Shown here in pieces: positions 12,637-55,704 of a stretch of 64,000 nt of DNA (its first letter is position 1; every line of letters begins with the position of its first letter). Both the position numbers and the translations under genes were made by a program. The stretch spans positions 85,877 through 149,876 of the IMG/VR virus record IMGVR_UViG_3300027365_000009, one strand, 5' to 3'. The notes under the pieces are model-generated. The model worked only from the letters and a program-made list of their open reading frames with translations, was not told the origin of the DNA and did not search any database. This stretch comes from a virus.

Positions 12637-12656
12637 AGGGCTCCTGCGGGAGCCCT
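12637..12656 (+). terminator. Hairpin closing the tad1-Nlig-tad2 unit
   Basis: AGGGCTCC-tgcg-GGAGCCCT flanked by ACATA and TATGCC. Confidence 0.65.
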
Positions 12657-12675
12657 ACTATGCCGTCCCACTGTA

Positions 12676-31653: not shown

Positions 31654-31691
31654 GGCATACACTCCCTCCCGGTATGGGAGGGAGGTATGTC
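31654..31691. terminator. Bidirectional hairpin with CATA/TATG flanks between convergent genes
   Basis: GGCATAC-a-CTCCCTCCC-ggtat-GGGAGGGAG-GTATGTC. Confidence 0.75.
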
Positions 31692-33871: not shown

Positions 33872-35920
33872 TTACCATGTGGTGTACACGGGTCGGGTGT
33901 TTATCAATTGACGCTCCAGGGTTTTGAGATCGTAGGTCTCTTCCAATTCGTACGCCTCACTAGACACCGTCATGGTACCGTTATCCTCAGATACGTCGAA
34001 CGGAGACTTAATCCCTAGGATAGCCTCCACTTGTTGTTGAGACCATGCCAAGATATCGCCGGAGCGTGTGGAGATGTTAGGTTCATTTCCAGTGTCGAGG
34101 AAACATTCCCACACCGTCGTTTGGGTGTCAGCTCCGAGGCGATGAATCCGGCTGATCGCTTGTTCACGAATGTACGCACGGAACGGTGCGTTAATCATGA
34201 TCATCGTATCGGCCATAGTGAGTGGGACTGCGGTGGACAGTGACTGATAGGTCGCGATGAGGGGGTTGAGGTCTTCCTGTCGGTCAAACTGCTGGACCGT
34301 TTTATTCAGTTCACTGTTATTCTTTCCGTACACCATCACCGGGTTCATTTCCTGTTTGGTGAGGTGGTCATAGGACGCCTCGAGTGCCTCAACAAATGAC
34401 GTAAATACCACGGTCTTCTTCGGGGTCGATCCACACACCCCTTTGAAGTCAATGTGGGGTACCATGTCCACATGACACTGAATGCGTTTACGTCCTAGAA
34501 TGCGACCTAACGCCTCACCCTGGATTTTCAAGTTTACGTACTTAACGATAGACTTGATGTCCTTGAACTCATTGCGAAGTTCTTTGGGGAGACTTGGGAT
34601 AATATACCGTTTCTCGTAGTCGTTAGATCGTTTGATCTCTTCGGCACAGAACCGCGCGTCCCCATTGAACTTCTGGACCTTCTTAACATCTTCCCGATAG
34701 ATCGCTAGGTCGGCTGCGTGCTTACGGTCCTTGACTTGGTCAGCATGGATCTTCATACATTTGTCGTAAAACGCATGATCGTCCTTTTTCCGACTCTGGT
34801 AATACTTAGTCCTTTCCGCAATAAACGCTTTCATGTCTTTGCGGATTTCCGTTAAGGTATAATCCCTACCGTTCGGGATTACCACCGGGAGTTTCTTCAT
34901 CACTGGCTTATCTAGACCAAGTTGATGTTTCTCGACCTTAAAAGCGATCTTTCCAATACGATGTTGAAGAATGTCCAAAGCACGCAGACCGTCACGTCCA
35001 TAGATTTTCTTGAACCGTTCCTCTACGTCCTTGGTGAAATAAGGATCAATCGCCCTGAGAAGCGGAATCGCTTCACTACCAATACTCTTGAACGGCGTCC
35101 CTGAGGCGTATAGCGTATCAGTGGGCTCAAGCTTTTCCAGCAAGGTAAGGAACTTCTGGGTACGTTGACTACCGATGTCGTTCAGATTATGGGATTCATC
35201 CAGGATCACTACCGTACGTTCGGTGCGTAGGTCATTGGCGAGATCCAATGCTTTATCTAGCGCCTCATAATGGAAGATCGCAACATGTTCGTTTTTGAAC
35301 GGTTTGTCGTGCTGGGCGACCCAACTCGACGGGGCTTTCTTGAATAGTTTATTGACCTCACTTTCCCAGACACGCTCTGTGGCATTTTTAGGGCAGACCA
35401 CCACAATCCGTTCAGCCTTTAAACAGTTGGCAATAGTGAGGCCCATCAGGGTCTTACCACTACCCGCTACCGCAGCAAGAAGGTATCCTTTAAGTTGGTA
35501 CTGCTGGGTGAGTCGATCATATTCTTCATAAAACGTCTGTTGGTAATCCAACGGACGGTAGATCATGTCATTGACAAGGGACAAATCCATTCTCGGCTTC
35601 GGTTCCAACTGTGTGTCTTGGAGCCAGGTGTGTTCGAGAAGTAGATCCTTGATCTTAGTCAGAGTACGGACATTGGTCCACCGGGAACGATGGGTAGTCA
35701 TCGTCTCCAACATGTAATAAATGTCGGTCGCAAAAAAGATAGGAAACGCCAGCGTGTTACGTGACGCGGTCGTGAACATGTACTGGTTAATGCGCGATGT
35801 CTTCCAAATGCGTGAAATATCGCGGGCCATGGTATCAGCAGGAATCCCGCTGATCACAATTTCTTTTTCGGTCTGAGTGACTTTAATGTTGCCAAGAATG
35901 CGGCGGATTTTAGAGAACAC
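33872..35920 (-). CDS. SF2 (SNF2-like) helicase
   Basis: Motifs AGSGKT, VVCP, ILDESH, SGTP and QAISRIHRLG. Confidence 0.92.
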   Translation of the reverse strand: MFSKIRRILGNIKVTQTEKEIVISGIPADTMARDISRIWKTSRINQYMFTTASRNTLAFPIFFATDIYYMLETMTTHRSRWTNVRTLTKIKDLLLEHTWLQDTQLEPKPRMDLSLVNDMIYRPLDYQQTFYEEYDRLTQQYQLKGYLLAAVAGSGKTLMGLTIANCLKAERIVVVCPKNATERVWESEVNKLFKKAPSSWVAQHDKPFKNEHVAIFHYEALDKALDLANDLRTERTVVILDESHNLNDIGSQRTQKFLTLLEKLEPTDTLYASGTPFKSIGSEAIPLLRAIDPYFTKDVEERFKKIYGRDGLRALDILQHRIGKIAFKVEKHQLGLDKPVMKKLPVVIPNGRDYTLTEIRKDMKAFIAERTKYYQSRKKDDHAFYDKCMKIHADQVKDRKHAADLAIYREDVKKVQKFNGDARFCAEEIKRSNDYEKRYIIPSLPKELRNEFKDIKSIVKYVNLKIQGEALGRILGRKRIQCHVDMVPHIDFKGVCGSTPKKTVVFTSFVEALEASYDHLTKQEMNPVMVYGKNNSELNKTVQQFDRQEDLNPLIATYQSLSTAVPLTMADTMIMINAPFRAYIREQAISRIHRLGADTQTTVWECFLDTGNEPNISTRSGDILAWSQQQVEAILGIKSPFDVSEDNGTMTVSSEAYELEETYDLKTLERQLINTRPVYTTW

Positions 35921-36062
35921 GAAAATTGCCTCGGGCGTGGATAGGTTGCGAAATCATAAGATTGACGACATAACCGGATGACCTCCCTGCGCGTGGGAGG
36001 TCGGTACCACAACTGTAACAGTGTGTCTTACATAGTATTACGTATAATGCCCTAATGTTATA

Positions 36063-36233
36063 GCACTGGTAGGGTTCGGCGTAATGCCCTACGTTAAGGA
36101 AGGTGATCCAGTCGCTAAAGGTCGGTAGGAGGATGAGTTCCGCACTACCGGCTGGGGGTCAACCAATCACCGTGAGGTGACCGTATCCCCACCCTAGGCT
36201 ACCGGTGCGCATCGCCCTCCCTTCGGGGAGGGC
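36063..36233 (+). ncRNA. Putative structured ncRNA A plus terminator hairpin
   Basis: Closing helix GCACTGGTAG (36063-72)/CTACCGGTGC (36199-208). Inner helices GTAGGG/CCCTAC, GTCGGTAG/CTACCGGC and TCACC-GTGA-GGTGA (GNRA loop). UUCG hairpin at 36214-33. Confidence 0.55.
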
Positions 36234-36260
36234 CCCTATTCCAACTCTTAGGTGTTAACC

Positions 36261-36401
36261 ATGGATATTCCTCCTGAAGGTACATCCCCTGAGGAAACGA
36301 TCAACCATTGTTTACATGAGCTTCTGTCTCGACAACGACCTCTTGATGAAGAATTTCAGCGTGTCTTAAACGAAGAGGCGTTCGACCTCTACGAGGAGTA
36401 G
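36261..36401 (+). CDS. Small acidic protein (46 aa)
   Basis: Not in the track. RBS AGGTG. Sequence MDIPPEG...QRPLDEEFQRVLNEEAFDLYEE. Confidence 0.55.
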   Translation: MDIPPEGTSPEETINHCLHELLSRQRPLDEEFQRVLNEEAFDLYEE

Positions 36402-36804
36402 TTATACGCACAGTACCCATGATGTGCTGAGGTACATAACTACCGAAGCATTTTAGAAAGTTCGCCGCCCATTGGCTTAGTGGCAGGCGAGCACCACTAA
36501 ACAAGAACGGTAGTATGAATTGTTCCTAAACCCATTTCTCGTGTTTCTATCGTCTCTTTTGGTTCTTCTTTGGTTAACCCGACCCTGTGGTGGGCAGTTG
36601 GGGTTTACCTGGTCTGAAGAGCATCGTGAAACGCGGGACACACTAAAGATTGGGTGTTCATTACACCGCAACGCTCTGGCCGTTGTATGGATAATGACGC
36701 TTAGTCTAGGCCCACCACCCAGTAAGTCGTGGTTAAAACGAAACACTCCCCTGCGGGAGTGATACCCGACGCGGGTATAAGGAGCCTCCCATGTGGGAGG
36801 CTCC
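36398..36804 (+). ncRNA. Putative structured ncRNA(s) B/C
   Basis: Rod at 36435-36517 and long-range helices 36574-95/36710-36 enclosing several hairpins. Serial hairpins continue to 36804. No convincing ORF. Confidence 0.5.
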
Positions 36805-36912
36805 TATGTCGTAGGGTAGTATTATTACGATAAAGATAATCTTATGACGAGATGTGTGAGTCTCATAATACCAAACCAAAACGCAATCACGCAGCACTGA
36901 AGGATACCACCC

Positions 36913-37101
36913 ATGGATTTACCCAATGATACCTTTTTAGTTGACCAACATGTGTTAGATCTCCCGGTACAGGCCATTAGCCTCGACTGCAATTTCTGGC
37001 AGGGAATGGACCCCTACATGGAAGTCCCACAAGAAATGACTCGCTATGTCCCAGACCTTATCGACTGTGGGGAGTTTGGTCAGCGCCTACTAGAAAACTG
37101 A
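36913..37101 (+). CDS. Hypothetical protein
   Basis: RBS AAGGA. Confidence 0.6.
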   Translation: MDLPNDTFLVDQHVLDLPVQAISLDCNFWQGMDPYMEVPQEMTRYVPDLIDCGEFGQRLLEN

Positions 37102-38871: not shown

Positions 38872-38928
38872 ATATACCCTCCCCAATATGGGGAGGGAGT
38901 CTATGCCGATAAGAAAAAGGAACACGTA

Positions 38929-45761: not shown

Positions 45762-45924
45762 GTTACAATCCTCCTCCGGGTATGGAGCGTTCTAACTGGA
45801 TGTTATGAATCGAAACTTCACATGCGGGTCATAGTATTACCGCCACATGACTATAATAGTCACTTAGGTAAAGTTTCCCACGGTGTCGTTTTCTCCCTCT
45901 TTTTACTCACCAAGGATATTGGCT

Positions 45925-55622: not shown

Positions 55623-55704
55623 AGAGGTATCCTAGAAGGTTAACATAGTCTATACCATCTCACTATGGCGGCATAACAGGGCTCCCGTAGGAGCCCTGGA
55701 TATA

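Follow-up and report, generated by a model that had tools for sequence, protein, structure and literature searches.

The stretch of DNA analyzed here (the window, 64,000 nt) is the final 64 kb of a 149,876-nt IMG/VR virus contig whose estimated completeness is 51%. A minus-strand gene at 33872-35920 encodes an SNF2/ResIII helicase of the gp203 type, which shares 52% identity with the helicase of Pseudomonas phage Noxifer and 44% with phiKZ gp203. Based on these identities, the source genome is assigned to the phiKZ-like (chimallivirus), nucleus-forming jumbo phages. Element C, the subject of this report, sits in the gap at 35921-36912, with the helicase gene on its left and small rightward genes from 36913 on its right. 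The first of these, the next gene after element C, encodes a 62-aa protein (36913-37101, plus strand). The gap is the contig's longest stretch without a credible long ORF and its largest non-coding gap, and it coincides with a switch to divergent transcription. The equivalent gap measures 350 nt in phiKZ and 214 nt in Noxifer. Among relatives, the gap on the helicase side varies widely: three lineages have 72-81 nt, L020 has 211 nt and L022 has 886 nt.

Element C shares this gap with a second folded RNA element, element A (36063-36233), which is likewise unannotated and has its own terminator. Element A is inverted relative to the helicase gene in L022 (4016-4203, flanked there by ~35-nt direct repeats) and in L027 (3096-3403), and it is displaced in L068 (4007-4151). 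Element A carries a signature segment with complementarity to the 16S 3' end, and this segment could be recognized in phiKZ, Noxifer, L027 and L068. Both elements flip orientation between phages. However, they differ in sequence and fold, and element A is widespread, whereas element C is confined to five uncultured lineages.

Between the two lies an ORF of 46 codons (36261-36401, or 49 codons from a GTG at 36252) with a Shine-Dalgarno-like AGGTG upstream. It would encode an acidic small protein; the codon score is 0.18 and no Pfam family was matched. Compared with L077, a close relative, pN is 0.36 and pS 0.88, and the C-terminal tail, of the EEFQRVL...FDLYEE type, is identical. This ORF looks like a true small gene. 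An earlier note on this DNA had described ~750 nt here as almost non-coding, which has to be corrected for this ORF.

LAGLIDADG inteins (L022:346-2250; helicases P0011, P0021 and P0042) lie in a dCMP-deaminase-like gene in one relative and in the helicase in several, and GIY-YIG homing endonuclease genes are found near this locus in L020 and L026. To judge from the sequences, the helicase neighborhood in relatives is a hot spot for mobile elements.

Relatives carrying element C

A blastn search with the gap against 50,697 phage records returned no match, and helicase relatives of 50-54% identity in IMG/VR and JGI shared no DNA with the window in the gap. We reached closer uncultured relatives through a helicase protein search (62-98% identity) and then compared the contigs. 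One of these, L022 (helicase 72% identical; the locus is identical to IMG/VR locus L025), contains a clear homolog of element C, in which conserved blocks alternate with divergent ones. Using the 62-aa downstream protein as the query led to a group of closer relatives that share the gene order of the window (L077, L079, L080 and L078). The first covariance model, built from the window and L022, recovered two further members, G004 and L068. In G004 (helicase 54% identical) the element is ~30 kb from the helicase gene, and in L068 (64% identical) it is directly upstream of that gene and on the same strand. In the window, L077 and L022, the element adjoins the helicase gene on the opposite strand. 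In total, five uncultured phage lineages were found to carry homologs. These occupy three genomic positions, lie in either orientation with respect to the helicase gene and have different flanking genes in different phages. The earlier note had proposed conservation next to the SF2 helicase as a check. Adjacency turned out not to be a rule, as the element is absent from that place in most relatives and distant from it in G004.

A second covariance model (R2) was built from six sequences, with an effective sequence number of 3.45, which is that of a small family. With this model, neither the five cultured chimalliviruses phiKZ, Noxifer, 201phi2-1, Phabio and PhiPA3 nor three complete genomes of uncultured relatives gave a match. 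Degenerate motif scans (four on IMG/VR and one on 185,579 species genomes) returned only the known members plus chance matches, which were discarded by sequence inspection or with the covariance model. L020, whose helicase is 88% identical, is without the whole island of element A, the small ORF, element B (the segment just upstream of element C) and element C; for L020 and similar loci, absence means absence within ~5 kb of the helicase gene. When L020:4770-5010 is compared with 36003-36850 of the window, the difference resembles a deletion from ~36040 to 36815 between two TAGTATTAC-like motifs. This suggests that the island is gained or lost by recombination between repeated TAGTATTAC-like promoter motifs.

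The Rfam check that the earlier note had called for was run, and element C belongs to none of the families covered: the Rfam 15 covariance models gave no match at the gathering threshold in the whole window. The best sub-threshold match, to Phe_leader on the minus strand (25.7 bits against the 55 needed, E 0.098), stems from the terminator hairpin alone. ARAGORN found no tRNA or tmRNA genes in the window.

The 80-codon frame within element C

An 80-codon open frame (ORF80, 36520-36762, plus strand) overlaps element C. It starts with TTG, has no Shine-Dalgarno sequence and was judged non-coding. The codon score of ORF80 is -0.107, which is like that of non-coding open frames, while the 5th percentile of real genes is 0.038. 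Its dN/dS is 1.4 against L077 and 1.17 against L079, with pS of 0.21-0.24 and pN of 0.27. In the right-hand genes, pN is 0.14-0.15 and pS is 0.80-0.86, and their synonymous sites are saturated, as are those of the left-hand 46-codon ORF with its pS given above. Yet element C is 74% identical to L077 without a single indel, compared with 73% for the neighboring protein gene and 44-53% for true spacers. Since neutral sites are saturated on both sides and element C is nevertheless conserved, the constraint is on nucleotides and not on amino acids.

These data bear on the reading of element C as the mRNA of a small hydrophobic protein of 80 aa with a structured coding region, for example a type I toxin-like membrane peptide. 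An open frame is retained in the window and all close relatives, L077 and L079 among them, and L022 has a 63-codon frame from the homologous GTG. The N-terminus is hydrophobic, the spacing between 36527 and 36719 differs from that of L022 by multiples of three, and the first 19 codons show 5 synonymous codon changes relative to L022, against 0-2 in the other frames. However, the L022 frame ends before two of the most conserved pieces of the element (the 3' arm and hairpin H1, described below), and an extra loop base together with altered spacing breaks the frame in G004. The start codon is TTG or GTG in relatives, without a conserved Shine-Dalgarno sequence. A search of ~5.8 billion protein clusters returned no homolog of ORF80, nor did a profile search of 1.84 billion representatives, and no Pfam family was matched. 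The pS of only 0.21, next to genes with pS of 0.8-0.9, and the dN/dS of 1.2-1.4 are not what a maintained protein would leave. On Pfam, codon statistics, homolog searches, frame counts and dN/dS, we rejected the protein reading and regard it as improbable; a short translated peptide, or a dual function alongside the RNA, is conceivable.

The earlier note had itself named protein-level conservation of this frame as evidence that would count against an RNA, and none was found. Its main proposal, an undescribed structured non-coding RNA of a jumbo phage, agrees with the lack of protein-level selection on the 80-aa ORF and with the conserved base pairs. The roles which that note had suggested for the RNA (decoy, antitoxin mimic or scaffold) are speculative. 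Element C is non-coding and constrained at the level of its nucleotides, and selection has maintained its base pairs rather than a protein.

We also considered element C as the decayed N-terminus of a 320-aa ORF in G004, and this was rejected because the first 150 codons of that ORF score as non-coding and cross a terminator. The 320-codon ORF (L074:2623-3585) is an artifact, its first ~150 codons running across the RNA element and a terminator. The real gene there probably starts near codon 150-168.

Fold, strand and borders of element C

All of the complementary segments named in the earlier note are found in the window, although GAAACAC, the partner of GTGTTTC, had been placed one base off (true position 36741-47). 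From these segments that note had assembled three nested long-range helices, and the minimum-energy fold of 36538-36746 alone gives the same model. Comparison with relatives retains one of the three. The helix 36587-95/36710-18, a perfect 9-nt inverted repeat in a repeat search, is kept across relatives, but the other two are lost in the closest ones: just 6 of 10 pairs of 36574-83/36726-36 are retained in L077, and a U-A pair of 36541-47/36741-47 becomes G.G. Segment 36541-47 keeps a local partner, 36628-34, instead, with a U.G to G.U double change in the closest relatives. The pairings TCATTA/TAATGA and GCAACG/CGTTGT both belong to a conserved second hairpin, and the three serial 3' hairpins exist, the third being a canonical phiKZ-type terminator. 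In place of the three nested long-range helices, the conserved fold predicted from these comparisons has two local hairpins and a single long-range pairing.

For the close relatives, an RNAalifold consensus of four sequences comprised Domain 1, Domain 2, an invariant hairpin (36727-41), H1, H2 and H3. In this consensus 94.8% of cells were paired and there were 5 double changes, compared with 1.5 +/- 1.0 in shuffles (1/500), a result that is supportive and not independent because the structure was derived from those same sequences. Sliding the partners by 1-3 columns reduced pairing to 32-46%.

Domain 1 (36537-36638, plus strand) is a long imperfect hairpin of 34 pairs, with 90-98% of cells paired, 3 double changes and an alifold z of -3.4; L022, G004 and L068 are each predicted to form a long hairpin equivalent to it. 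The apex of Domain 1 (columns 65-77 of alignment A9, that is, 36584-36596) is 92% invariant among close relatives and contains the 5' arm of the long-range helix (36587-36595, plus strand). This arm co-varies across lineages with the 3' arm (36710-36718, plus strand), its perfect complement, which lies just past Domain 2. In L022 the terminal C-G pair is U-A, in G004 two internal pairs are swapped, and in L068 one base is gone from each arm, a coordinated one-pair deletion. In each of these three relatives, the 5' arm again sits atop a long local hairpin made of unrelated sequence. A 5' arm at a hairpin apex is the architecture common to four independent lineages with differing sequences.

Domain 2 (36648-36706, plus strand) has 22 pairs, seven with one-sided changes via G.U and one with a double change, and an alifold z of -2.6. 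Its tip is a 6-bp stem (36668-73/36681-86) with two compensated pairs in G004 and L068, where the flanks are kept; in the L077 group one of its pairs is a C.A mismatch. Hairpin H1 (36744-36761, plus strand), which has a YWGC loop, is the most conserved piece of the element, at 94% identity to L077. Four lineages have an unchanged H1 stem; in L068, four of the six pairs are replaced by compensated ones and the YWGC loop is kept. H2 (36763-36777, plus strand) is a small GC hairpin with one compensated pair among close relatives; its position in L022 and L068 is taken by a hairpin of different sequence, and no counterpart was seen in G004. When H1 is read on the minus strand, a T-rich tail follows and the hairpin scores as a classical intrinsic terminator; in L022, H1 on that strand is followed by a TATGCG-like tail. 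A short antisense RNA, which a type I toxin-antitoxin locus would require, might end at this point.

MAFFT misaligned the helix arms, and we therefore used anchored and covariance-model alignments in its place. On the MAFFT alignment of the window with L022, the alifold z was -1.1 on the plus strand and -2.9 on the minus strand, which is weak and strand-ambiguous. In the six-sequence alignment, which covers five lineages and was fitted to a covariance model that favors pairing, the long-range helix, the Domain 2 tip and H1 were 95% paired. Nine of the 21 core pairs had changed on both sides and still paired (2.2 +/- 1.2 in shuffles, 0/500), and the covariation score was 0.305 against 0.087 in shuffles (0/500). 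The base pairs of element C are conserved. With this covariation support, element C is best described as a new family of structured RNAs, one that is limited to a few uncultured chimalliviruses.

Fold energies gave a mixed picture. The best duplex between the 5' and 3' flanks has -44.1 kcal/mol, compared with -29.6 +/- 3.9 in shuffles, none of which (0/500) was equal or better. The fold z for 36538-36804 is -3.8, driven mainly by the three terminal hairpins. These hairpins (36740-36812) reach a z of -6.6 and rank 1 and 3 of 852 for structure among 150-nt plus-strand windows in the 64 kb. The body at 36538-36746 is not unusually stable (z -1.0; 32 of 200 shuffles fold equally well), and the body of the L022 element gives no thermodynamic signal, with a z of 0.0. 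An unexceptional body, and long-range helices of which two out of three are not conserved, are what spacer DNA with a terminator stack only would look like, the helices having arisen by chance. Against this stand the identity of the element, which matches that of a neighboring protein gene and not of true spacers, the covariation in three helices over five lineages, and the movement of the whole unit as a block. We consider the spacer reading very unlikely.

The strand can be read from the substitutions. Among the close-relative pairs there are 45 G.U cells and 5 A.C cells, many differences being transitions absorbed by G.U wobble. Pairing falls from the plus-strand value given above to 83.3% if the minus strand is read, and the alifold energy is lower on the plus strand than on the minus strand. 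Because this compensation is rich in G.U and strand-specific, and because of the orientation of the terminator, element C is assigned to the plus strand, and RNA is favored over DNA as the form in which it acts.

The same observations weigh on a DNA-level element, whether a replication origin, a packaging site or an array of protein-binding sites. The position at a divergent-transcription switch, in the contig's largest non-coding gap, and the many inverted repeats in which the region is rich would suit such an element, and the earlier note had offered an origin-like locus as its alternative. However, there are no iterons, no direct repeats longer than 13 nt and no AT-rich stretch at the element (GC 0.48-0.53), and GC skew shows no turn there beyond that of the strand switch. 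On these grounds the origin reading was rejected. The G.U compensation works on one strand only, and an element that is absent from most relatives, including complete genomes, and that varies in place and orientation is a misfit for an essential origin. We hold any DNA-level reading to be highly improbable.

Element C ends in a phiKZ-type intrinsic terminator (36780-36812, plus strand), which marks the RNA 3' end. It consists of H3, an 11-bp hairpin at 36780-36805, followed by TATGTCGT, and it fits the phiKZ terminator motif, which covers H3 only. As described for phiKZ by Putzeys et al. (2024, PMC10914365), this motif combines a CCYCCC/GGGRGG hairpin with TTATKYYGT directly 3' of it. A terminator of this type lies 3' of the element on the plus strand in all five lineages, and a mirror copy on the minus strand (36002-35964) lies just before the helicase gene. 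A GC-rich hairpin followed by TATGYCG recurs genome-wide on both strands (for example, at 12637-12665, 31662-31684, 38877-38908 and 55675-55698 of the window), and at convergent gene ends the terminator tail is present on both sides of the hairpin. This is the same terminator grammar as in phiKZ.

On the 5' side, a TTRTAY-type motif at 36399-36409 (plus strand) is a possible promoter and may mark where the transcript begins. Its sequence is similar to the TATATTAC core of the phiKZ gp203-204 gap, and short TTRTAY-like motifs also occur upstream of the element in L077/L079, L022 and L068. The segment between this motif and ORF80 (element B, 36402-36519, plus strand) is 68% identical to L077 without indels, compared with 55% for the adjacent ORF and with the spacer values given above; against L022, element B had no conserved structure. 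Element B is probably the 5' part of the same RNA as element C. Because of the upstream motifs in several lineages and the constraint on element B relative to L077, the RNA may start near 36400.

The right border is marked by promoter-like motifs of the 62-aa gene (36817-36847, plus strand), which are outside the RNA and near-invariant in close relatives. A perfect 10-nt inverted repeat, 35954-63/36838-47, contains TTATGA and lies ~40-75 nt before the starts of the helicase gene and the 62-aa gene. Its halves are probably two TATG-type promoter copies facing outward from the island, each lying beyond one of the two outward-facing terminators. Going by these motifs, the gap would accordingly be an island that carries its own transcription stops, both pointing outward, and is bordered by the promoters of the genes on either side. 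A CATAGTATTAC promoter-like motif has a third copy at 45832-45845, 51 nt before a gene start, and there are other intergenic copies at 36033 and 36817.

Probable role of element C

Because position, orientation and neighbors vary while the unit and its terminator stay intact, we favor a self-contained RNA gene over the leader of any one gene. It is reasonably probable, in our judgment, that element C is such a plus-strand, non-coding structured RNA gene and that its product most likely binds protein. Under this model, 36537-36812 would be the body and 3' end of an RNA transcribed from left to right by the phage's own RNA polymerases. With a start probably at ~36400-36520, the RNA would be ~0.3-0.4 kb long. 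It is predicted to fold into the long hairpins of Domain 1 and Domain 2, and the apical loop of Domain 1 (36587-95) would pair with 36710-18, the strand just after Domain 2. This 9-bp pairing could make the molecule more compact, as a long-range or pseudoknot helix, or could join separate copies of it. H1 with its YWGC loop, then H2, then the terminator H3 would complete the 3' part. The RNA would presumably be released as a separate, stable molecule and act as RNA, most likely by binding a protein partner, with the invariant segments of the loop, the tip and H1 as contact sites.

A cis-acting leader or attenuator would use the same parts differently. The fold would sense a signal or a protein and set the balance between a stop at H1-H3 and read-through, and the short RNA would be a by-product, which is what has been proposed for many short RNAs of phiKZ that derive from 5'UTRs. 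Transcriptional switches are usually laid out in this way, as a structured domain with hairpins and a terminator directly behind it, and a same-strand gene begins ~60-150 nt past the terminator in every lineage. Segment 36541-47 has two alternative partners in the window, 36628-34 and 36741-47, and prematurely terminated short RNAs have been reported in phiKZ and 201phi2-1 (Putzeys et al. 2024, PMC10914365; PMC11512511). However, the long-range alternative with 36741-47 is lost in L077 and so is not kept in the closest relatives. One downstream gene class would be expected of a riboswitch or attenuator, but the genes downstream are unrelated, namely a 62/56-aa protein, the SNF2 helicase and an unrelated ~150-aa protein. 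In addition, the next gene is preceded, past the terminator, by a separate promoter-like block of high conservation, which makes read-through unnecessary. We think the leader unlikely, though it deserves to be kept in view.

Returning to the self-contained RNA gene, a more far-reaching form of this reading is that element C represents a mobile RNA gene class of nucleus-forming jumbo phages. Each copy would be a ~0.3 kb terminator-capped cassette able to hop from one intergenic site to another. The co-varying pairing of loop and strand would either act between molecules and assemble a multimeric RNA scaffold, or hold a compact fold that captures a protein of the host or the phage, and with element A it would make up an island of RNA effectors produced early in infection. 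We put this forward as speculative and doubtful.

The nearest known RNAs are the short terminator-delimited ncRNA candidates of phiKZ and 201phi2-1, which are ~70-250 nt long and come from RNA sequencing, and of which one is shared by different genera (Putzeys et al. 2024, PMC10914365; PMC11512511). Like element C, they belong to the same phage group, are located in intergenic regions or 5'UTRs and end in a phiKZ-type hairpin terminator. They are also bounded by a phage promoter, whereas for element C the promoter is putative. Element C differs from them in being larger, in having two long hairpins plus a long-range helix and in being defined by comparative structure alone. The phiKZ-type terminator explains the last 33 nt of element C, but not Domains 1 and 2, the long-range helix or H1.

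Among known families, the ROOL, GOLLD and raiA-type motifs in Rfam were recognized by covariation, are often borne by phages or prophages, do not code for protein and lack an assigned function. The resemblance of element C to these is one of category only, since element C is much smaller, has a much narrower distribution and has no Rfam match.

To our knowledge, the RNA biology of jumbo phages is almost unexplored, and we know of no function assigned to the short RNAs of phiKZ and 201phi2-1. To these, element C adds a larger, covariation-supported RNA that behaves like a portable cassette. RNAs of this kind can end up as spurious proteins in gene calls and ORF lists; the 80-aa ORF of the window and the 320-aa ORF of G004 are examples. 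The analysis also yields a covariance model and a set of mutational targets, namely the long-range helix, the Domain 2 tip and the H1 loop. If element C does bind a host factor or assemble into a particle, it would give nucleus-forming phages a new, RNA-based route for acting on their hosts.
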